Positions 1,028 through 11,110 of a stretch of DNA of 12,432 bases are shown here, in pieces; position 1 is the first letter of the stretch; every line of letters begins with the position of its first letter. Under the pieces are notes generated by a model, which was not told the DNA's origin, made no database searches, and saw only the letters and a list, made by a program, of their open reading frames with translations. This DNA is from a virus (Duplodnaviria; Heunggongvirae; Uroviricota; Caudoviricetes): IMG/VR virus record IMGVR_UViG_2909246061_000008. One strand, given 5' to 3'. A program made the position numbers and the translations under genes.

Positions 1028-2674
1028 TCAGGTTGTTGCAGGGTCGTCACATTTTGGCAGCCAGTCGCCGTAGCTTTCCTCTTTCAGCGTCAGGTTGGTC
1101 TGTATCCCCTGTTTGGTATGGCGCTTCTCGTAATTCAGTCCGTATTCCTTCAGCATCACCGGCAGCCCCAGCCCGAACATTTTCAGACTGAGTACATTCC
1201 GGTAGCCGTTTGCCTCCATGTAGGCCAGATAGGCGTGATAGAGGTATTTACGGTAATTACGCGGGATGATACTGGCGTTCCCCATATACATGCCGCTGGT
1301 CTGCGGCAGGGTTTCCAGATAGCCGATAAAATCAAACGTCGGGTCGGCATCCCGTTTGATGTTCAGCGCCTCGTCTGAGTTCTGCTGGGACTGAAGCAGT
1401 GACCGGGCGAGCATCGGGTCGCTGAACTTCTGCATCAGGTGACGCACGATGACCGCCAGCTCGCGGGTGATTTTGTCCTTAAGCTGCGGGTCGCGCTCCT
1501 GCGGGGCTATCTGTTCCGGGAAGTGAATAATCACCCGCCGGCGTGACACGCCGCCGCTGCGGTCGGTGAAGCGCATCGGGTTATTGTTCACGGCCAGAAT
1601 TACCGCCGGGATATGCGTGGAGTACGCATCCCGGTATTTCGGGTCCACGGACACCGCATCGCCGCCGGTGATGGCCTTGAGTCCGGCACCGTCGCCGCTC
1701 CATTTTTCCTGGTCCGGCAGGCGTATCAGTGAGAAGCCAGTTAACGCGGCACGTTCACGCGGGGATTCCAGCGTCTCGATGGTGGCCGACGTGGCGTTAT
1801 CCTCCCCGGCCAGCAGGGTGGCTATTTCGGCCATGATACTTTTGCCGCTGCCGCCGGGACCGGTCACCTCCAGAAAGAGCTGCCAGTCGTAGCGGTTTGC
1901 CAGCACCATAAACAGTGCGGCCAGAATCACGTCGCGTTTTTCCGCACGGCCACCGGCGGCACGGTCAAGCCAGCGCCAGAACGCGGGGGCGTGGGTTTCC
2001 AGCGTTTCCCCTTCCACCGGCGGGGTGAAATCCACATCGCACAGGGTGCGCATCCAGTGTGACGGACTGTGCGGGTGGAACGTGCCGTTCTGCGTGTCGA
2101 GCACGCCGTTACGAAAGCCAATCAGGCGGCGGGAGGGGGCTTCCTGCTGCGGAATAATCAGCTTCAGGGTGTCCACCACGGAGGCCACCTTCCCGGAGGA
2201 GAACGGCGCACGCAGCCGCTGAAACAGCCCGGCCACATCCCGGGCAAAGTCCTGTGGCGGCAGCACCTTCCAGACACCATTTTCATAGCGGGACAGAAGC
2301 TGGCCGTTGGCATCGACCGCGAGCGCCTCGCCGTAATGCTCATAGATACGCATGGCCTTTTCGCTGGTACTCATGGCGGAAAACTCCGCTTCGCTCATGG
2401 TGTCGAACGGGCTTTCAGCCGGTGGCCGGATGGCATCATAAATGGCCTTACGGGTGGCTTCCCCGCCGTACTGCGTGAAGGCATCATTCCAGTCACCGAA
2501 GACCGGCGGCAGGGCAACAACACCCTCACACGCATCTGCGGCTGCGGCGGCTTTTTTCTGGCCGTCACCGCTGAGGTCACGGTCTGCGGCAAGGACAATC
2601 TGACAGGCCGGATGCTTCTGCCGGGCAAGGCTGGCCAGAGAAAGGAGGTTCACGGAAGAAAGCGCCACCATCAC
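1028..2674 (-). CDS. P4 alpha-like primase/helicase, N-terminally truncated (TOPRIM remnant + SF3 helicase + C-terminal domain); possibly a pseudogene
   Basis: 548-aa ORF with a TOPRIM-like LAADRD motif near its start, Walker A GPGGSGKS, and an SF3-type motif C (ILAVNNNP). The reading frame stays open upstream to a stop at 2759-2761 (about 28 more codons) without reaching a primase N-terminal domain or a convincing start; the annotated start is GTG/ATG at 2674/2671. High G+C (~60%+). Adjacent to TGTTCACC iterons. Confidence 0.75.
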   Translation of the reverse strand: MMVALSSVNLLSLASLARQKHPACQIVLAADRDLSGDGQKKAAAAADACEGVVALPPVFGDWNDAFTQYGGEATRKAIYDAIRPPAESPFDTMSEAEFSAMSTSEKAMRIYEHYGEALAVDANGQLLSRYENGVWKVLPPQDFARDVAGLFQRLRAPFSSGKVASVVDTLKLIIPQQEAPSRRLIGFRNGVLDTQNGTFHPHSPSHWMRTLCDVDFTPPVEGETLETHAPAFWRWLDRAAGGRAEKRDVILAALFMVLANRYDWQLFLEVTGPGGSGKSIMAEIATLLAGEDNATSATIETLESPRERAALTGFSLIRLPDQEKWSGDGAGLKAITGGDAVSVDPKYRDAYSTHIPAVILAVNNNPMRFTDRSGGVSRRRVIIHFPEQIAPQERDPQLKDKITRELAVIVRHLMQKFSDPMLARSLLQSQQNSDEALNIKRDADPTFDFIGYLETLPQTSGMYMGNASIIPRNYRKYLYHAYLAYMEANGYRNVLSLKMFGLGLPVMLKEYGLNYEKRHTKQGIQTNLTLKEESYGDWLPKCDDPATT

Positions 2675-2895
2675 CGTTTCACCGGTCAGGTGATGTACGG
2701 TACCATAACTGTAGTGAATGTCTGTTATGAGCGAGGGGCGGAAGTTCGGAATGCATACTTACTTCGATGTGTGTTAAGCAATGGGGGCAGGTCGGCAATT
2801 TATTGTAAAAGCGATAACACTAACAGCATTAGTGAAGAGGCTAAAGATTTGTTTAGAACCCGCCCCCTTAAGAGGCGGTATTCTTGGCAAACATT

Positions 2896-5800
2896 TTATT
2901 TACTGTTTATCAATTGCAATAATGGGATCTCAGCTACATCACTAGGAATATAGGGGTCATCTTCTTTTAAATTAACCCCAATACAATCAACATCATTTAA
3001 CCCAATTTCCCAAGCCCACCTAACATCTAACGTACTCATTTCTATCCCTAAACTATCTCTTTGTGGATGCTCAGGAACAATATTTTTTAACATCGCATCA
3101 CATCCAAGATAGAATTTTCCACAGGCCTGATACGCAGCAAGAAATCTTTCTAAATTGACGTTACTATCAGGAGTCATCGTATTAATTCTACTGATCATTG
3201 TCATTCTTTTAGTTAATGGCGTTGTCATCATATTTTCAGATATCAGCACTCTATAATGATTTGGGTTTTTAACTGAAATACCCTTGACAATACAAACCCG
3301 TAATCTGGCTTTACTATCTACCAAGCCTACTGATGATATAAGATCTTTAAAAATATCCTCACCTATATTGGGGTGTTTAAATAATAGATATAACCCTGGA
3401 TAACACGATTTTAATTGAGCGAAGCCTACTCCTTGCCAGCGTGTTCTATCCCATAGACGAGGCTTGATTAGACTTTGTATTGAATAATCTTTATGCGTTA
3501 TATTTTCGGAATTAAGTTCCTCTTCAGGCATTATTCCTTTACCAGGTGTTGGAACATTTACATCCTCGATCTCCAACACTTTCGGAAATTCACTATCCCA
3601 GGGTTTATCTCTTAAAAGAGGGTAAGTTTTCTTTTCAGCACTGGTGGAATAAATTTTCTTAATTTGTTGATCAATATCATTTCCAAGAACATTTTCAATA
3701 GCTTTGATACAGGCACCGAAACTAATTGCTCTGTCAAATGCAGCATCTTCGAATATCATTCTTTCAATGTATTCTGTATTTTTTGTAAAAAATAACTCAG
3801 GGAGAAGATCAAATACTATTTTCTTGAATTCATTAGTAATTTTTTGTTGAGCATCGACTCTAAATGAACTTGTTTCAAAACCATTGCAATTTATAGTAAG
3901 GTTTAGTTTTCCATTATTGCTATTTATTTCATGTGATAAGGAGAAGTCATCTTCATCATCTGCTATTACTTCAATAATTAAAAATGCTTCTTTCAGATGG
4001 ATGTTATCAATCGTACAAGTTGCAAAAGCACTCTCTAAAAGCGCTAAGATACTAGTTGAAAACTCTATAAATGGTGACCGATTCGGAAAGTTAATTTCTA
4101 TAGTGCATCCAAAAATAAAAGATGTATATATTCCTCGTTTATCATAGTTATCTTTTATGCCTTTACTATTGAATCCAGCATCAAAGTCACGTATTTCTTG
4201 CAAGAAATCATTATGATCTTTATCGGCAGTAACTTCATACTCATGTTCAAAATTTTCAATATAACCTAAAGCATATTTAAGACATCCAGATGATACAAAA
4301 AGACCTAATCTATCGAGTTCATCGGGAATATTACTCTGTCGATTTATTCCATTTAGGTCAGTGTTCAAAATGAGTTGACTTATGTAAAAATCAACTTGCT
4401 GATTTTCTTTATCGCCGAACGAACTTTCACTGATATTTTGGTTAATTATTAAAAACAGTTCATACCATAAAAGAGCATGTGCTAATTTCCCTAGTTTTAT
4501 TTCTGCCAGGCATAAACTATAATAAATCTCAGCCTGCTTTAATGATATCTCATCATACTTCCAGTAGTTATCTGTAATCAAAGAAGCGGATAGAAGCAAG
4601 CATGAACGTGAACTCCATAGCAACCCAATGGATTCGTAAGCATAAGCAATAGCTTTTAATGCTAATATAAATTTATCTCGTGATTCCTCTTTATAGAGTG
4701 GTATAAATGATTTTCCTAAATACTTGATTGCCTGATAAGGGTGACCATTTTGAATCCTCTTTATACCTCTTCGTAGATTTAATAATGCCCCTTTAACTTC
4801 ACCACCTCTAACAGCAGATTGCTCAGTCATATAGTCTAATAAATTTTCATATGCATCTACCTCGAAAAAAATGTCATCCAGTTCGTTCAAAAGTTGGAAG
4901 TTCTTCTCAAAGGAATAGCCTATTAAATTCCCACTATTTTTAAAAATTTCATGTAACTCTTCAAATACAACCGAAGCATCTTCTACATCTGAAAACGTTG
5001 TCAATTTATAAATAGCTTTGTGAGTTCTCGCTGTGAGTGCATTACTGGGACGTGATTCATCGTCAGCTATCTCATCTAGTTTAGCGAGCATGTTACGTTC
5101 AATATTCTCAATATCGATTGTAGATGTTGCGTTGTTAAGTCTAATATAACTTTTATGAACGGTTACTAAATTTAAAACTTTCTCCCATTTTGAGGAATTA
5201 GTTGATGATGCAATACTTTCATATGCAAATTGAAGATTTTCTTCAAAGAGATTAAAATCTTCCATCCAAAAATGAGACTTCCAGGCATATTGATAATACG
5301 CATCTAGCAATTGTTGATTAGTCCCGAATTTCTTTGATATTTTTATAGCTCTTTCAAATAGACCTTGTGTTTCAATTAGTGGTTTCTCAAGTTCAGCGCT
5401 TAACTCTGCAATTTCTAAAAAAATATCCACCTGTTCATATGAAATTTCAGCAGGGTTTATTTTCTCTCTAATATACTCGGTTAACTCTTCATATTTTTTA
5501 TGCTTTTTATAATCATTTTCTCCAAAAATAACTTCTCTTTTATATTGCGTTGGAACTGACAATGAATCAATGGCCAATTGCTCAAAATTATTTTTGTAAA
5601 TTTGATCTAATAGCCAATTAATATCTAATATACGAACATCTATTCCAGTTTTTGTTTTTAGTGTATCCTCAACCTCTGAACGAATATTGGACTTTGCAGA
5701 CTGGTTCGTTACGCAAAATACTTTAGCATACCCACGTTCTGTTTCTTTTATCTTAAGTACATCTTCATGGCATTTTTTCTTCCAGTCTTTACGTGTACTT

Positions 5801-6147
5801 ACCGCAAAGGCCCAGCGTTCTCTATTTGATGCTTCATTAACGCCTTCGAACCAAAGAAGCTTATTCTGTTCTGAAACAGGGAATGTTTGTGTGTCAGTTT
5901 TACCATCCCCCCCTGCTACAGGGCCAGTTTGTTCAAGGAGATTAGGGCAAATTATTTTTTCACATATTTTTTTTGCAAAATCTTCGAATTGTAGTTCTTG
6001 ATTTCTTGTATTTAGCGTAGAGAGGAAGTGTTCCAGTACAACTCTGTCTAAAGTACCAGTCTCTCTGATTGTTGAATCAGAAAATTTTTCAGGGCGACGG
6101 CGCCTTAGAAATTCTTTAGATGAAAATTTGGTTTTCTGTACATTCAT
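2896..6147 (-). CDS. Large hypothetical protein (1083 aa) encoded in a low-G+C cargo block; function unknown, candidate stand-alone defence/abortive-infection protein
   Basis: Single uninterrupted 3252-nt ORF. G+C is about 30-35% against ~55-65% in the flanks. A GAGGAG Shine-Dalgarno lies ~10 nt upstream of the ATG at 6147-6145, which overlaps the stop of the truncated stf (ATGA). Composition is Lys/Glu/Asn/Ile/Phe-rich, with helical repeat-like stretches in the middle. No Walker A (GxxxxGK[ST]) was found. The N-terminus carries GPVAGGDGKTD (aa 75-85), weakly reminiscent of an Mrr-type nuclease motif. Confidence 0.8.
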   Translation of the reverse strand: MNVQKTKFSSKEFLRRRRPEKFSDSTIRETGTLDRVVLEHFLSTLNTRNQELQFEDFAKKICEKIICPNLLEQTGPVAGGDGKTDTQTFPVSEQNKLLWFEGVNEASNRERWAFAVSTRKDWKKKCHEDVLKIKETERGYAKVFCVTNQSAKSNIRSEVEDTLKTKTGIDVRILDINWLLDQIYKNNFEQLAIDSLSVPTQYKREVIFGENDYKKHKKYEELTEYIREKINPAEISYEQVDIFLEIAELSAELEKPLIETQGLFERAIKISKKFGTNQQLLDAYYQYAWKSHFWMEDFNLFEENLQFAYESIASSTNSSKWEKVLNLVTVHKSYIRLNNATSTIDIENIERNMLAKLDEIADDESRPSNALTARTHKAIYKLTTFSDVEDASVVFEELHEIFKNSGNLIGYSFEKNFQLLNELDDIFFEVDAYENLLDYMTEQSAVRGGEVKGALLNLRRGIKRIQNGHPYQAIKYLGKSFIPLYKEESRDKFILALKAIAYAYESIGLLWSSRSCLLLSASLITDNYWKYDEISLKQAEIYYSLCLAEIKLGKLAHALLWYELFLIINQNISESSFGDKENQQVDFYISQLILNTDLNGINRQSNIPDELDRLGLFVSSGCLKYALGYIENFEHEYEVTADKDHNDFLQEIRDFDAGFNSKGIKDNYDKRGIYTSFIFGCTIEINFPNRSPFIEFSTSILALLESAFATCTIDNIHLKEAFLIIEVIADDEDDFSLSHEINSNNGKLNLTINCNGFETSSFRVDAQQKITNEFKKIVFDLLPELFFTKNTEYIERMIFEDAAFDRAISFGACIKAIENVLGNDIDQQIKKIYSTSAEKKTYPLLRDKPWDSEFPKVLEIEDVNVPTPGKGIMPEEELNSENITHKDYSIQSLIKPRLWDRTRWQGVGFAQLKSCYPGLYLLFKHPNIGEDIFKDLISSVGLVDSKARLRVCIVKGISVKNPNHYRVLISENMMTTPLTKRMTMISRINTMTPDSNVNLERFLAAYQACGKFYLGCDAMLKNIVPEHPQRDSLGIEMSTLDVRWAWEIGLNDVDCIGVNLKEDDPYIPSDVAEIPLLQLINSK

Positions 6148-7571
6148 GATTTTGACGCTCCTCTTGCTATCCCCTTTTTCGTCGTACTTGCATCCTCAAG
6201 CGCCACGGCGGATGCAATATCCTCTGCCCGTTTTGCCGCTGTCTCGGCGCGCGTTGCCGCGGATTCCGCCGTACTTTTGCTCTGTGCTGCCGCCGTCGCA
6301 CTGCCAGCTGCCTCTGTCGCCTTCGTGGATGCTGTCGTGGCGCTGCCCTTCGCTGCGGACGCTTGTCTGGTCGCCTCATCTTTTGAAGCAGACGCCGATG
6401 ATGCCGATGACGCCGCCGAACTGGCGGACGATGCCGCTGCCGTTTTTGAGGATTCTGCGCTGGTTTCCGACGCTTTCGCGTTCGTCTCGGATGTCTTCGC
6501 TGCGGAAGCAGACCTCGCTGCTGCGCTGGCCTGTTCAGTGGCTTCGCCAGCCTTCGTTGTGGCTGTTGAAGCAGACGATGCGGCACTTTCTGCCGATTTT
6601 CCGGCGGCGGTGGCACTGGCTGAGGCCTGCCCGGCACTTGTTGACGCGGCACTGGCAGACGACGCAGCCGCTGTTTTTGAGCCTGCCGCAGCCGAGGCGC
6701 TCTGTCCCGCTGCCGTTTCAGAAGACCTGGCGTTTGTCTCAGACGTCTTTGCCGCCTTCGCGGAATTGCCTGCCGCCGTTGCCGAGGAAGCGGCACTACT
6801 GGCGCTTGATGATGCGTTCGTTTCTGATGATTTCGCTGCCTCTTTTGAGGCCGCCGCATCCCGGGCTGAGGTGGCTGCTTCTGACGCCTTCGTGGTCGCG
6901 GCGGATGCAGAAGTGGCTGCTGATTGTTGTGACGCTGCCGCATTCGTTTCTGACGTTTTCGCCGCACCGGCACTGGTAGCTGCCGCGCTTTTTGAGGACT
7001 CTGCAGCAGCAGCACTTTTCGATGCTTCACTGGCCTTTGTTGATGCCGTTCCTGCGCTGGAAGTCGCTGACTGAGCCGACGACGCGGCCTGTCCGGCTGA
7101 CGTGCTGGCTGCGCGTGCTGAGCCTGCAGCATCAGTCGCATGGGTTGCCGCCTCACGGGCTGATGTGCTGGCATCACTGGCTGACTTCTTCGCGGCTGCC
7201 GTGTTCTGTGCCACCACGGACGCGTTACGCGCCACCTCTTCCACCATCAGCTCAAAACGGCGCAGTGCCTCCGGACGGGCATCATCCTCCGTCATGGCAC
7301 CGAGAAAATCATTCAGCGTACCGGGTCGGGAATCTTCATACACGGTAATGGTCCCGGCATGTGACGGCGGGAATCCTTCCACCAACAGACTGACGCTGTA
7401 CTGACCGTACTCAACGTCCATACTGTAACGCCCGGCTTCATCCGGATTTTCTGAGGCCAGCGTATTCACCACCACCGTGGTGCTGTTACGTTTTGCTTTC
7501 AGCTGGATTGTGCAGTTCTGTACCGGTTTTCCTGTGCCGTCTTTCAGTACACCTGAAATCTTTACTGCCAT
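6144..7571 (-). CDS. stf: Lambdoid side tail fibre protein Stf, N-terminal fragment, C-terminally truncated with 7 novel terminal codons
   Basis: N-terminus MAVKISGVLKDGTGKPVQNCTIQLKA... matches my recollection of lambda Stf, followed by an Ala/Ser/Thr-rich low-complexity region. Similarity ends after ...EDASTTKKGI; the tail ARGASKS is encoded by the junction sequence. ATG at 7571-7569 is preceded by a GGGGTGA Shine-Dalgarno; the ORF track's longer form starts at GTG 7577. Confidence 0.8.
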   Translation of the reverse strand: MAVKISGVLKDGTGKPVQNCTIQLKAKRNSTTVVVNTLASENPDEAGRYSMDVEYGQYSVSLLVEGFPPSHAGTITVYEDSRPGTLNDFLGAMTEDDARPEALRRFELMVEEVARNASVVAQNTAAAKKSASDASTSAREAATHATDAAGSARAASTSAGQAASSAQSATSSAGTASTKASEASKSAAAAESSKSAAATSAGAAKTSETNAAASQQSAATSASAATTKASEAATSARDAAASKEAAKSSETNASSSASSAASSATAAGNSAKAAKTSETNARSSETAAGQSASAAAGSKTAAASSASAASTSAGQASASATAAGKSAESAASSASTATTKAGEATEQASAAARSASAAKTSETNAKASETSAESSKTAAASSASSAASSASSASASKDEATRQASAAKGSATTASTKATEAAGSATAAAQSKSTAESAATRAETAAKRAEDIASAVALEDASTTKKGIARGASKS

Positions 7572-7582
7572 ATTCACCCCAC

Positions 7583-7609
7583 AAAAAAGCCCGCCTGAAC
7601 CGGCGGGCT
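7583..7609 (-). terminator. Rho-independent terminator between lom and stf
   Basis: 8-bp GC-rich stem (AGCCCGCC 7588-7595 with GGCGGGCT 7602-7609) around a 6-nt loop. On the minus strand it is followed by a T6 run (plus-strand A-run 7583-7588). Confidence 0.55.
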
Positions 7610-7635
7610 GTCATAACACTGTGTTACCTGGCTAA

Positions 7636-8235
7636 TCAGAATTTATAACCGACACCCATGATGAAACCGTCAGTGCGCCAGTCGCCACTGCCGGAGCCTT
7701 CATAAGCAATATCAATGGCCACGGATTCGGTCGGGTTAAACTGCACGCCAGCTCCCCACGCCAGAGACGTGTTGCTGTGGCGACCGTCATCACTTCCGGT
7801 CAGCACGTCGTGCGTTTTCCCCTTGTTGTCAGTTACGCGGAGATAATCCCCGGAGAAAGTCGACACACGGCTGTAAGCCACACCCGCCATCGCATACGCG
7901 CTGAACCATTCATTCACGCGCACAGACGGCCCCGCCATCACGCTGAACCAGCGGTTACGAACGGAATCTTCATGCCAGCGGGTATCGCTGTAACGGGTAA
8001 GCTGGCGATTCTTGTCTCCTGCATAGCTGAATGACGTCACTATCCCCAGTGTGTCCGTAAACTCATAACGGTATTTCACGTTAATCCCGTTCAGATCATC
8101 ACTGCCGGGAACGTTGGTCCGGGCATGAAGATACCCCGCGCTCAGCGTGGACTGATGTTCAGATGCCCATGCAGGCGCACCGGATACGGCCAGACAAATG
8201 GCTGCGGACAAAATGGCGGCATAAAGTTTACGCAT
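7636..8235 (-). CDS. lom: Lom-like outer membrane protein (Ail/Lom family)
   Basis: 199-aa ORF with a signal peptide ([24 protein letters not shown]) and the C-terminus ...[25 protein letters not shown] typical of Ail/Lom beta-barrels. A GAGAGG Shine-Dalgarno lies 6 nt upstream. Its position between the I fragment and stf mirrors lambda J-lom-stf order. Confidence 0.9.
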
Positions 8236-8257
8236 AATTACCTCTCGCTTTTCTGCA

Positions 8258-8284
8258 ATAAAAAAGGCACCATTTCTGGTGCCC
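8258..8284 (-). terminator. Rho-independent terminator upstream of lom and downstream of the I fragment
   Basis: Stem GGCACC (8266-8271) pairs with GGTGCC (8278-8283) around a 6-nt loop. On the minus strand it is followed by TTTTTTATT (plus-strand A-run 8258-8265). Confidence 0.5.
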
Positions 8285-8304
8285 TTATATGGGTTATAAC
8301 AATT

Positions 8305-8697
8305 TCAACGAATACTGATGCCGGAAGCGACTTTTTTGGTCACAATCACCGTACAGTCGGTGATATTACCTGCCCACTGATTGCCTTTATGGAAAACCTT
8401 AAACTCCAGAGTGACGCTTCCCCTGCCACTCGGCATATCAATAATCGCACTGTAGCTACCGGGAAGACGGGCTGATAATTCATTTTCGCCTGCATCACGC
8501 CCGGCAATGCGCACCTGATACCAGCCCTCATTCACTTTCTGGCGAAACGACGGAAGCTGCGTGGCCAGCGCCCGGATGGCTTCGGCCCCCGTTTTCACAC
8601 GAAGGTCGATGCGGTGGCCAAATCGTTGTAAATCCCCGTAAAGGCAGATGCGTGCCATGCCCGGTGACGCCAGAGGGAGTGTGTGCGTCGCTGCCAT
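8305..8697 (-). CDS. Lambdoid tail assembly protein I, N-terminal ~80 aa joined to an unrelated ~50-aa C-terminus; J is absent
   Basis: The first ~80 residues (MAATHTLPLASPGMARICLYGDLQRFG...WYQVRIAGRD) match my recollection of lambda gpI, then the sequence diverges (AGENELSARLPGSY...VASGISIR). The ORF is 130 aa against ~223 expected. No J-sized ORF lies between it and lom. Confidence 0.65.
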   Translation of the reverse strand: MAATHTLPLASPGMARICLYGDLQRFGHRIDLRVKTGAEAIRALATQLPSFRQKVNEGWYQVRIAGRDAGENELSARLPGSYSAIIDMPSGRGSVTLEFKVFHKGNQWAGNITDCTVIVTKKVASGISIR

Positions 8698-9347
8698 TTG
8701 TCGGTATACCTCTCTCGTTTGCTCAGTTGTTCAGGAATATGGTGCAACAGCTCGCCGTCGCCGCAGTAAATGGCGGCATGATTCGGCACCGATGAACCAA
8801 AACAGCACAGCAGCACATCGCCCGGTTGTGCTGATGACAACGGCACCTGATACAGCCCTGTGGCCTCCAGATTATCCAGATAGAGATTCTGACCGTGACG
8901 CCACCAGTCATCCCCGCGATGAAAATCCGGCATCTCAATTCCCGCCAGATGGTAAGCATCCCGGAACAGCGTGTAACAGTCCGTCACCCCGTGCTCAAAG
9001 CGCCGCCCGGTGAGATGCGGCACACAGCGGAATTTATGAATCGCCCCCCGGCAGACCAGCCACCACGGCAAATCACTCTGCACCTGCAGCCGCCGGTCGG
9101 TCTCACTCAGCCAGGGCAGACCACCGGGGTGGCTGTGGACCAGCGCCACAATCTCACCCTGCATCTCTGCCCGCAGCCAGTCCTCCGGCGACATCCGGAA
9201 ATACTCCTCCGGCTCACCGGAGATATTCACGCAGGGAAAATATCTTTCCCCCTCCGGTGTTCTCACCACGAAGCCGCACGACTCCGCTGGCGCACATCGC
9301 CGGGCGTGCGCCAGAATCGCTGATTCTGTCTCTGTCATGGGATTCAC
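8595..9347 (-). CDS. Lambdoid tail assembly protein K (JAB/MPN + NlpC/P60 domains)
   Basis: HSHPGG (JAB-like) motif and a Cys/His pair (..DCYTLF.., ..PNHAAIY..) typical of NlpC/P60. Near-lambda-like by recollection. GTG at 9347 overlaps the L stop (GTGA); an alternative ATG lies at 9338. The 3' end overlaps the I start by ~100 nt, as in lambda. Confidence 0.85.
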   Translation of the reverse strand: MNPMTETESAILAHARRCAPAESCGFVVRTPEGERYFPCVNISGEPEEYFRMSPEDWLRAEMQGEIVALVHSHPGGLPWLSETDRRLQVQSDLPWWLVCRGAIHKFRCVPHLTGRRFEHGVTDCYTLFRDAYHLAGIEMPDFHRGDDWWRHGQNLYLDNLEATGLYQVPLSSAQPGDVLLCCFGSSVPNHAAIYCGDGELLHHIPEQLSKRERYTDKWQRRTHSLWRHRAWHASAFTGIYNDLATASTFV

Positions 9348-9718
9348 TGCGAAAGTTTGTTAATGGAAAGGAAGCCGCCAAAGTTGCCGACGTTATTGCG
9401 AAACTTACAGCCGCTCAGGCATTTGCTGCATTTATCCTTCGTGATATCGGACGTCGGCTGATCATATTCATCCGCGACCGCCGGACCGTGATAACCGCAC
9501 TCATCACCGCGATAGGTCCAGGTGCAGGTGTTGGCCAGCATGATACGTCCCGGAAAAACGGCACCGTCCGTTTCCGTCGGCGTGGACAGTACAAAAGAGG
9601 CACTCACCGCGCTCAGTTCGCTGCACTGCTCGATGCGCCAGCGGCTGATCACCTCCTGCTCCGGATCGGCGTCACTGTTTCCGTTGACGAAGTTCACCGC
9701 ATCCAGATACCGTCCTTT
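9344..9718 (-). pseudogene. Lambdoid minor tail protein L, 5'-truncated (C-terminal ~125 codons only)
   Basis: Translation (K)GRYLDAVNFVNGNSDADPEQEVISRWRIEQ...FGGFLSINKLSQ matches the C-terminal part of lambda L as I recall it. An in-frame stop at 9719-9721 cuts off the N-terminal half, and the similarity ends exactly where the inverted repeat begins. Confidence 0.7.
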
Positions 9719-9720
9719 TT

Positions 9721-9809
9721 ACAAAACAGAGAAGAGCATCACCGGACGACGGGCTCATAACCCAATCCATCCGGGCGGCAGTCACCGCAGGTGTTCTTCT
9801 CTGTTTTGT
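9721..9809. repeat. Perfect 15-bp inverted repeat (ACAAAACAGAGAAGA / TCTTCTCTGTTTTGT) flanking a 59-bp spacer
   Basis: Arms at 9721-9735 and 9795-9809, read directly. It abuts the L truncation point and lies ~50 bp upstream of the yfdP-like start. Confidence 0.8.
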
Positions 9810-9857
9810 GGAGAAACTAACCGACCTTGCAGGGTCGATATGATGAGGAGCAGCAAA

Positions 9858-10220
9858 ATGGCTAGCGAACGCAGTACTGATGTGCAGGCATTTATCGGGG
9901 AGCTGGACGGCGGCGTATTTGAAACCAAAATCGGCGCAGTTCTCAGTGAAGTCGCTTCCGGTGTGATGAACACGAAAACCAAAGGTAAGGTCTCGCTCAA
10001 CCTGGAAATCGAACCGTTTGATGAGAACCGAGTGAAAATCAAACACAAACTCTCATATGTTCGCCCGACTAACCGCGGGAAAATTTCCGAAGAAGACACC
10101 ACCGAAACGCCGATGTATGTCAATCGCGGTGGTCGCCTGACTATTCTGCAGGAAGACCAGGGACAGTTACTGACTCTTGCCGGTGAACCTGACGGAAAAC
10201 TCCGCGCAGCAGGTCGTTAA
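9858..10220 (+). CDS. yfdP: YfdP-like prophage protein (120 aa), function unknown
   Basis: ATG at 9858 is preceded by GAGGAG at a suitable spacing. Length and gene order (followed by yfdQ/R/S/T-like genes) match the E. coli CPS-53 block as I recall it. The ORF track's longer form (from 9522) runs through the inverted repeat and is unlikely to be real. Confidence 0.6.
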   Translation: MASERSTDVQAFIGELDGGVFETKIGAVLSEVASGVMNTKTKGKVSLNLEIEPFDENRVKIKHKLSYVRPTNRGKISEEDTTETPMYVNRGGRLTILQEDQGQLLTLAGEPDGKLRAAGR

Positions 10221-10285
10221 TATCGTTTTTAATTAACTGATTATTTATCTCATCACTGAATATCTTTATATAGTGAGGACTTATT

Positions 10286-11110
10286 ATGTCTCAGAACTTA
10301 GACGCAACCGCAATTAATCAAATCCATGCCCTTATTTCTGCTCAGGGTGTTAATGAAATTATCAGTAAGATTGGTGCCGATGCTGTGGCATTGCCTGAGA
10401 ATTTCCGCATTCATGATCTGGAAAAATTTAATTTAAATCGCTTCCGTTTCCGTGGTGCGCTTTCCACTGCCAGCATCGATGACTTTACCCGTTATTCTAA
10501 AGATCTTGCAGATGAAGGCACCCGCTGCTTTATCGATGCTGATAATATGCGTGCCGTCAGTGTGCTTAACCTGGGTACTATTGATGAACCAGGTCACGCA
10601 GATAACACCGCCACACTCAAACTGAAAAAGACAGCACCGTTCTCTGCTCTGTTGTCTGTTAACGGCGAGCGTAACTCCCAGAAGTCACTAGCAGAATGGA
10701 TTGAAGACTGGGCCGACTATCTTGTGGGCTTTGATGCTAATGGTGACGCTATTCAGGCAACAAAAGCGGCTGCGGCTGTCCGTAAAATCACGATTGAAGC
10801 AAACCAGACCGCTGATTTTGAAGATAATGACTTCAGCGGCAAACGCTCCCTGATGGAGTCTGTCGAAGCGAAGACCAAAGACATTATGCCAGTGGCATTT
10901 GAATTTAAATGCGTTCCGTTTGAAGGTCTGAAAGAACGTCCGTTTAAATTACGCCTCAGTATTATCACTGGCGATCGTCCTGTACTGGTTCTGCGCATTA
11001 TTCAGCTGGAGGCGGTGCAGGAAGAAATGGCTAACGAATTTCGTGATCTGCTTGTTGAGAAATTCAAGGACAGCAAAGTAGAAACCTTTATTGGTACTTT
11101 CACCGCCTGA
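10286..11110 (+). CDS. yfdQ: YfdQ-like protein (274 aa; DUF2303 family by recollection)
   Basis: Clean ORF with a GAGGA Shine-Dalgarno 6 nt upstream. The 274-aa length matches YfdQ, and its position in the yfdP-T-like block is consistent. Confidence 0.7.

Follow-up and report, generated by a model that had tools for sequence, protein, structure and literature searches.

The 12,432-nucleotide (nt) stretch of Caudoviricetes DNA in IMG/VR record IMGVR_UViG_2909246061_000008, hereafter the window, contains a truncated tail-fibre gene (stf′) whose stop codon overlaps the start codon of a long downstream open reading frame (ORF), here called the cargo gene. Both lie on the minus strand, and all coordinates are those of the whole stretch unless a locus is named. 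The stf′/cargo junction is very probably a scar left by microhomology-mediated deletion as a lambdoid prophage decayed, an accidental outcome of ordinary genome decay, and we infer that the overlap is a neutral by-product. The evidence consists of colinear longer alleles in other Escherichia coli strains, a pentamer shared by the two deletion endpoints, and a leader that is native to the cargo gene in other strains and genera. The junction comprises the following features.

6144–7577, minus strand: stf′ pseudogene ORF in the ORF list, 477 amino acids (aa) from a GTG at 7577, with a Pfam phage_tail_N match (prophage tail-fibre N-terminal domain; E=1.2e-71).
7571, minus strand: alternative stf′ start, a lambda-type ATG (MAVKISG...), giving 475 aa.
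Make-up of stf′, minus strand: 470 Stf residues, a 7-aa read-through tail (ARGASKS) and TGA; expected product 49 kDa.
2896–6147, minus strand: cargo ORF in the ORF list, 1083 aa, low GC; expected product 125 kDa.
6144–6147, minus strand: ATGA stop/start overlap (stf′ TGA 6146–6144, cargo ATG 6147–6145).
6158–6163, minus strand: Shine-Dalgarno (SD) sequence GAGGAG of the cargo gene, its AGGAG core separated from the ATG by a 10-nt spacer.
6148–6171, minus strand: retained native cargo leader of 24 nt (GATAGCAAGAGGAGCGTCAAAATC), read in the stf frame as (I)ARGASKS.
6167–6171, minus strand: GATAG, the one kept copy of a 5-nt direct repeat at the deletion joint.

The minus strand across the junction reads ...ACG AAA AAG GGG ATA GCA AGA GGA GCG TCA AAA TCA TGA ATG TAC..., and the C-terminal end of the stf′ ORF is ...TTKKGIARGASKS*, i.e. 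...KKGI-ARGASKS-TGA. GC content falls sharply at this point, from ~60% in stf′ to ~33% in the cargo ORF. Over residues 1–470 (numbered from the GTG) stf′ shares 99% identity with Stf of phage PhiR34_1, a 1134-aa protein that reads on as ...KKGIVQLSSATNST at the point where stf′ has ...KKGIARGASKS*, and in alignments with 19 sequenced lambdoid phages and E. coli stfR the nucleotide homology to intact stf ceases at 6167. An earlier, sequence-only reading of this DNA had ended the Stf similarity after KKGI, treated the last seven codons as foreign to stf, and described a GAGGAG ~10 nt upstream of the cargo ATG and an overlap of TGA 6146–6144 with ATG 6147–6145. The alignments place the end of stf at 6167 (residue 470), the SD is found at 6163–6158 with a 10-nt gap from its AGGAG core, the overlap coordinates are right to the base, and neither ARGASKS nor the overlap is native to any stf variant among the phage and stfR sequences aligned. 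RefSeq annotates stf′ as a pseudogene lacking its C-terminus. Exact-protein look-ups found neither the 475-aa nor the 477-aa form on record, probably because gene callers handle this ORF differently.

A megablast search of the window against 5,426 complete E. coli genomes gives matches that split at the junction, those on the cargo side ending at 6171 and those on the stf side starting at 6167. Three strains (JSMCR1, E3 and EC21Z-063) contain the same decayed prophage with an additional 751 bp between stf′ and cargo and with flanks that are 99.9–100% identical. In JSMCR1 (locus L003) the window segment 1–6171 corresponds to 2402–8572 (100%) and the segment 6167–9707 to 9319–12859, such that the two alignments overlap by 5 nt and 751 bp are absent from the window. 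The overlap is the pentamer GATAG, of which JSMCR1 has two copies, one in stf (...AAAAAGGG-GATAG-TACAGCTC...) and one on the cargo side (...TTTATTGTC-GATAG-CAAGAGGAGCGTCAAAATCATG). Microhomology of at least 5 nt occurred in 0.66% of 200,000 random deletions of 200–2000 bp simulated in the same DNA (P = 0.0066). Codons 471–539 of stf fall within the lost 751 bp, as do the final bases of tfa, a ~330-nt piece from the 3′ end of a tyrosine integrase gene, interrupted by a stop codon, and 38 nt of the 62-nt spacer that follows this piece. JSMCR1 is itself a deletion derivative, in which stf is joined at ~codon 513 to the last ~10 nt of tfa. Strain 6409 and several other assemblies contain J, lom, a full-length stf (1092 aa), tfa, the integrase fragment, cargo and the integrase of a P4-like element. 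The allelic comparison proposed in the sequence-only reading thus yields two earlier states, longer than the junction allele by 751 bp and by more than 4 kb. Carriers of the junction allele are the window, PSS-10, 2017.11.01CC and GCA_036626575.1.

Because the longer alleles are colinear and the pentamer is shared, the locus is best described by a history leading from an intact prophage through two deletions. The ancestor would have been of the 6409 type, with J-lom-stf-tfa followed by a b-region cassette made up of the integrase 3′ fragment, the 62-nt spacer and cargo itself (1083 aa). In a first deletion stf (~codon 513) would have become fused to the end of tfa, giving the state seen in JSMCR1, E3 and EC21Z-063. 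A second, of 751 bp between the two GATAG pentamers, would have removed the rest of stf′, the tip of tfa, the integrase fragment and the cargo leader beyond −24. The stf′ frame now reads seven codons of the cargo leader and stops at a TGA formed by the cargo ATG and the next base. Decay of the prophage would then have continued in 2017.11.01CC with the insertion of IS1 into the cargo gene.

Cryptic lambdoid prophages of E. coli are eroded by microhomology-mediated (illegitimate) deletions, as in the stf/tfa remnants of Rac, Qin, e14 and CPS-53. The junction resembles these in retaining one copy of a short repeat at the joint, in having its ancestral allele in sister strains, in leaving an stf pseudogene that is truncated and ends in a few out-of-frame codons, and in lying within a remnant with further deletions. 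It differs from the usual prophage deletion scar in that the distal endpoint falls 24 nt 5′ of an intact ORF, such that the resulting overlap mimics an operon junction.

The sequence-only reading had the cargo gene arrive with its own 5′ untranslated region (UTR) and become arranged for co-translation with the Stf fragment from the tail-fibre transcription unit, which amounts to a moron-like insertion into stf. The sharp fall in GC at the junction and an ATGA and SD geometry competent for coupling agree with such an event, but alleles in which 751 bp or more than 4 kb of DNA (the stf 3′ half, tfa and the integrase fragment) intervene align base for base on both sides, the joint has microhomology of the deletion type, and with the further points given below insertion into stf is highly improbable. 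An artefact of assembly or sequencing is scarcely tenable as the source of the junction, and so is site-specific recombination by an integrase. The identical junction is present in independently sequenced complete genomes and in a draft assembly, which argues against an artefact. The deleted segment did contain a fragment of an integrase gene, as recombination by an integrase might lead one to expect, but what remained of that gene was a dead 3′ piece interrupted by a stop codon, the window is devoid of a lambda att core, one of the endpoints falls within stf coding DNA, and the two endpoints share nothing but GATAG.

The leader upstream of the cargo ATG is native to the cargo gene. Two 27-mers were used to distinguish the alleles, TTTATTGTCGATAGCAAGAGGAGCGTC for the native leader and GAAAAAGGGGATAGCAAGAGGAGCGTC for the junction. 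The native 27-mer precedes the cargo ATG in 15 fetched loci, and the junction 27-mer in four loci from three assemblies; among the 23 complete E. coli genomes with a cargo gene, 21 have the native leader and two the junction. Searches of metagenome and viral contig collections with the junction 27-mer returned 0 matches. The 24 nt before the cargo ATG are identical in loci L002, L003, L006, L007, L016–L021, L023 and L024 and in Kluyvera, and the Photorhabdus leader has one substitution relative to the 24 nt of the window. The Rahnella, Serratia and Snodgrassella loci retain GGAG at the same spacing together with ATGA, which is intrinsic to the cargo gene in nine of nine relatives read, the second codon being AAT or AAA. 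The ribosome-binding site (RBS) is a genuine conserved feature of the cargo gene, and since its leader is native in other strains and genera, ARGASKS is merely the stf frame entering that leader, corresponding to positions −22 to −2. That the leader and RBS travel with the gene is a point in favour of an insertion, and the claim that cargo carries its own 5′ UTR holds insofar as this leader is native to it in 21/23 E. coli genomes, Kluyvera and Photorhabdus; its arrival inside stf does not hold, for in 6409 the gene is already located downstream of stf-tfa.

Three frames could enter the retained 24 nt. The first meets a TAG stop inside GATAG, the second gives a stop-free Stf–cargo fusion, and the third reads IARGASKS* with the ATGA overlap. 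Because the ATG and the following A are native to cargo, one of the three entry frames yields the overlap, which is a ~1-in-3 frame outcome and not above chance. No overlapping upstream ORF is present in 21 of the 23 complete E. coli genomes or in any of seven loci from other genera, and among the loci compared the stop/start overlap is confined to the deletion lineage. The statement that the two genes are arranged to be co-translated is therefore overstated, the overlap being an accident of frame.

The cargo gene occupies the b region of the prophage, as delimited by two further features.

2701–6171, minus strand: surviving part of a mobile integrase-fragment and cargo cassette, 99.6–99.9% identical to loci L002, L006 and L007.
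2703–2746, minus strand: 44-nt relic of the b-region end, 98% identical to lambda 27319–27362, which lies between ea59 and attP.

The counterpart of this relic in strain 6409 is longer, reaching the position of lambda 27464, and a second relic, corresponding to lambda 24161–24351, lies between tfa and the integrase fragment, confirming for this strain a lambdoid b-region position of cargo between tfa and the att-proximal end. The integrase-fragment and cargo cassette fills the prophage b region in place of ea47–ea59, as judged from these alignments, and the word cargo is apt for it. Relics of the lambda b region flank the cassette, and cargo is therefore a neighbour of stf-tfa with no insertion into stf. 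The 3′ side of cargo is in keeping with this: the insertion model finds no stf sequence there, and the b-region relic and a fragment of a P4-family primase gene are present instead. Short matches to this end of the window occur in several hundred E. coli genomes; in one examined derivative of K-12 MG1655 the match is ~370 bp from a lambda att core and beside a gene for an ea59-like ATPase.

The context of cargo in five other genera (Kluyvera, Photorhabdus, Rahnella, Serratia and Snodgrassella) also speaks against an origin by insertion into stf. In these loci cargo is situated 3′ of a tyrosine integrase gene or its 3′ end, and neither stf nor other tail genes were found near it. A tRNA gene (tRNA-Arg, tRNA-SeC or tRNA-Thr) adjoins cargo in five of the seven non-E. 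coli loci, and in Photorhabdus cargo starts 62 nt past the stop of a full-length integrase ORF. Even the Snodgrassella locus is homologous to the others as far as about −130 relative to the cargo ATG, the DNA beyond being unrelated; this stretch would take in ~65 nt of an integrase 3′ end. The resident integrase gene has its 3′ end duplicated immediately before cargo in both Rahnella and Kluyvera (L014 5599–5653/5820–5874 and L009 5189–5392/5671–5874), and these features suggest that cargo may be exchanged by recombination within integrase 3′ ends. In E. coli NWU_3 (L007 6102–9933) the integrase-fragment and cargo cassette, with a P4-like integrase gene after it, is located next to mscS, elsewhere in the chromosome and without adjacent tail genes; it has therefore travelled separately from the lambdoid prophage. 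In Rahnella sp. PCH160 (L010 9476–9587) at least ~10 copies of an 8-nt tandem repeat (ACTCTACA / ACTTTACA) are located ~230 nt 3′ of the cargo stop.

Accessory genes of the lambda b region and lambdoid morons include lom, bor and ea47–ea59. The cassette is similar to these in its position between tfa and the b-region end nearest attP (in 6409) and in its foreign GC content, and it differs in that it came as an integrase fragment plus cargo, is tRNA-adjacent elsewhere, and has no carrier among sequenced phages, none of those in the phage collection searched containing the cargo gene. P4-like satellites and prophages also have integrase-adjacent defence hotspots, with the payload between psu and int (Rousset et al. 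2022, PMC9122126). The cargo loci share with them a variable single-gene payload directly at a tyrosine integrase gene, near tRNA sites and P4-like elements. However, cargo is 3′ of and co-oriented with the integrase gene and not between psu and int, and it always brings at least ~65 nt of the integrase 3′ end.

Translation of cargo may not depend on stf′. The SD and AUG are predicted to be unpaired in both the junction (z −0.38) and native (0.20) contexts. Of five native E. coli ATGA pairs, four were coupled and one initiated de novo, and strict coupling was tied to RNA structure that masks the initiation region (Huber et al. 2019, PMC6728339). The stf′/cargo pair resembles these in its 4-nt overlap and in a downstream SD located within the 3′ end of the upstream ORF. 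It is unlike coupled pairs in that its overlap lacks conservation, stf′ as the upstream member is a pseudogene and the products have no known functional link, and unlike strictly coupled pairs in that the initiation region is predicted to be unstructured, so that de novo initiation is expected. The predicted open fold of the SD and AUG, like that of the native leader, argues against obligatory coupling. De novo initiation at the native SD could occur on any mRNA that covers it, with termination and reinitiation from stf′ as an optional extra; coupling is possible in this model, and would be unselected.

Transcription is considered with three further features.

7588–7609, minus strand: terminator-like hairpin in the lom/stf′ gap, with an 8-bp stem (7 GC pairs) and T6, 11 nt before the stf′ GTG.
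8263–8286, minus strand: second terminator-like hairpin, 5′ of lom.
7636–8235, minus strand: lom, intact and upstream of stf′, encoding an Ail/Lom outer-membrane protein (Pfam Ail_Lom E=1.4e-119).

The 65-nt lom–stf′ segment that contains the first hairpin has a minimum free energy of −22.6 kcal/mol. The location of lom between two terminator-like hairpins is a moron-like layout, as for prophage expression independent of the late operon. Q-modified late transcription in an active lambdoid phage would read through such terminator signals. The remnant lacks everything upstream of the truncated L, i.e. the 5′ part of the late operon is gone. Over 2.15 kb upstream on the minus strand of the window the best sigma-70 position weight matrix score is 4.8 bits, compared with a shuffle-best mean of 8.3, and no sigma-70-like consensus site was found in minus-strand DNA from 6148 to 10400. 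Because the late-operon 5′ part is lost, hairpins flank lom and no sigma-70-like site is present upstream, expression of cargo from a tail-fibre transcription unit, as the sequence-only reading had suggested, appears doubtful from these predictions; the missing late-operon part and the hairpins before stf′ also count against a cargo gene inserted for such expression. A promoter lies 5′ of the SD, and −10 and −35 elements cannot fit within 24 nt, so the native promoter would have been removed. With the native 5′ flank lost, cargo transcription would rely on read-through from upstream, and in the junction allele cargo is probably poorly transcribed. The best sigma-70-like candidates lie in the deleted DNA, one being GAGACA-16-TGgTATAGT ending at −129 (8.06 bits) and another being at −516 (9.23 bits); alignment of the leader across loci reveals no clear −35/−10 pair. 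IS1 is present in the cargo gene of the sister strain 2017.11.01CC (L001 5988–6755), with a 9-bp target duplication corresponding to window 3355–3363, and cargo is split into two ORFs in E. coli NWU_3, which together suggest relaxed constraint on the gene.

Several points weigh against neutral decay as a full account of the junction. The first is that the ATGA and SD geometry is that of four of five tested pairs that were coupled (PMC6728339), and some coupling would on this analogy be likely if a transcript spans the junction. The second concerns the promoter, which was not located in the native context, the candidates in the deleted DNA scoring no better than shuffled sequence in scans that are crude consensus matches. 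The third is that an intact 1083-aa ORF is kept in junction-allele strains from Ecuador and elsewhere, which fits continued function too.

These points bear on an adaptive alternative, according to which the deletion was selected because read-through from lom/stf′ and reinitiation coupling altered the dose or timing of cargo, a predicted defence gene (see below). The presence of the junction allele in at least three assemblies in addition to the window, from different countries and with the ORF mostly intact, is in accord with selection, as are the coupling of four of five tested E. coli ATGA pairs (PMC6728339) and the possibility that the uninterrupted stf′ ORF protects any read-through transcript against polarity caused by Rho. 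Selection is nonetheless unlikely, given that the allele is rare (the two of 23 complete cargo-bearing genomes, and none of the metagenome and viral contigs), that one of the two complete junction genomes has IS1 inside cargo, that the frame arises one time in three, that upstream there are two terminator-like hairpins and no promoter-like site, and that the same lineage has other plainly degenerative deletions (the I′-J′ fusion, truncated L, and a truncated helix-turn-helix/integrase end). It is very unlikely that cargo is now a promoter-less distal cistron dependent on lom/stf′ read-through and on reinitiation after the 470-residue Stf fragment, with the two proteins co-made and perhaps co-acting (the Stf fragment as bait or partner), or that infecting lambdoid phages could acquire the stf′-cargo joint by recombination.

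As a deletion scar the junction carries little mechanistic weight, being one more of its kind in a cryptic prophage. It is a cautionary case, in which an SD and an ATGA overlap beside a pseudogene mimic a designed coupling and comparison of alleles explains the overlap fully. The locus also offers a natural allelic series for a predicted defence gene, from intact prophage through deletion 1 and deletion 2 (with everything 5′ of −24 gone) to disruption by IS1, and this series could be used to locate the cargo promoter and to test expression and protection. The junction itself is of low interest, and cargo would be a sensible subject of study in its own right.

The cargo protein is a member of a family of more than 760 proteins of uniform length (~1085 aa), annotated as hypothetical or 'TPR'. 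Named members are mostly from the Gammaproteobacteria, Snodgrassella being an exception. Searches of Pfam, PADLOC, NCBIfam and PHROGs gave no usable match, and a profile search of PDB sequences returned nothing. An AF2 model (pLDDT 85, pTM 0.71) contains an N-terminal alpha/beta domain (residues 1–~210), a helical TPR-like solenoid (~210–655) and a C-terminal alpha/beta region (656–1083), and a restriction-endonuclease alpha/beta core fold (PD-(D/E)xK, Mrr/AspBHI-like) is found in the protein. An invariant loop, TGPVAGGDGKTDTQTFPVSEQ (residues 74–94; window 5866–5928, minus strand), has pLDDT <50 in both AF2 runs. It contains the invariant GGDGKTD (D81, K83, D85), which we take to resemble the 'GDGGID' metal-binding motif of Mrr; no invariant (E/Q)xK is present on the following strand. 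The cargo product is thus a predicted, uncharacterised nuclease-TPR protein. By comparison with Avs4 (PDB 8dgf), which has an Mrr/AspBHI-type PD-(D/E)xK head and a TPR sensor, it is without the central STAND (P-loop) NTPase.

A defence role is predicted by machine learning. Table S10 of DefensePredictor, which lists 1,041 clusters with a predicted, uncharacterised defence protein, describes the cluster represented by WP_039268304.1 as 'Predicted novel defense gene' with a mean log-odds of 8.44 (PMC13092281). WP_039268304.1 is the protein of PSS-10, JSMCR1 and 6409; among the 12 supplementary files of that paper searched, no other was found to list it. Cargo is thus a predicted anti-phage defence gene. 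Two other assignments were rejected. The protein is not of the Avs/STAND type, as it has no NTPase domain, only helices being present at 210–655 in the AF2 model and Pfam and PADLOC giving no NTPase match. A link to the Tai 'tail assembly inhibition' systems was also discarded, as those are unrelated small proteins that target protein J.

The remnant as a whole is 99.89% identical to E. coli PSS-10 and 99.96% identical to GCA_036626575.1 over the window. On one side it is bounded by paoD and a LysR fragment, on the other by a CPS-53-like early region (yfdP–yfdT), which in the less decayed JSMCR1 ends at an integrase gene, tRNA-Thr and proA; the prophage site is between tRNA-Thr/proA and paoD. 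The minus strand contains a 5′-truncated L, K, an I-J fusion, intact lom, stf′, the cargo ORF and a 5′-truncated P4-family primase gene, and an Rfam scan of the window found no RNA family. The stf′-cargo joint is flanked by phage homology, with L′–stf′ upstream and the lambda b-region relic downstream. The I-J fusion (8305–8697, minus strand) is a 130-aa ORF made up of the N-terminus of tail assembly protein I and the last ~55 residues of J, such that the 3.5-kb J gene has been lost almost entirely, in a frame-compatible manner. At window 9707 tail gene L (remnant 9344–9697, minus strand) has been cut short at its 5′ end by a further deletion, of 325 bp compared with JSMCR1, and abuts the divergent DNA on the yfdP side. 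A 12-nt indel at 613–624 (CTATACACATAT), present in the window and missing from PSS-10, is located in the AT-rich intergenic region between the LysR and primase fragments.

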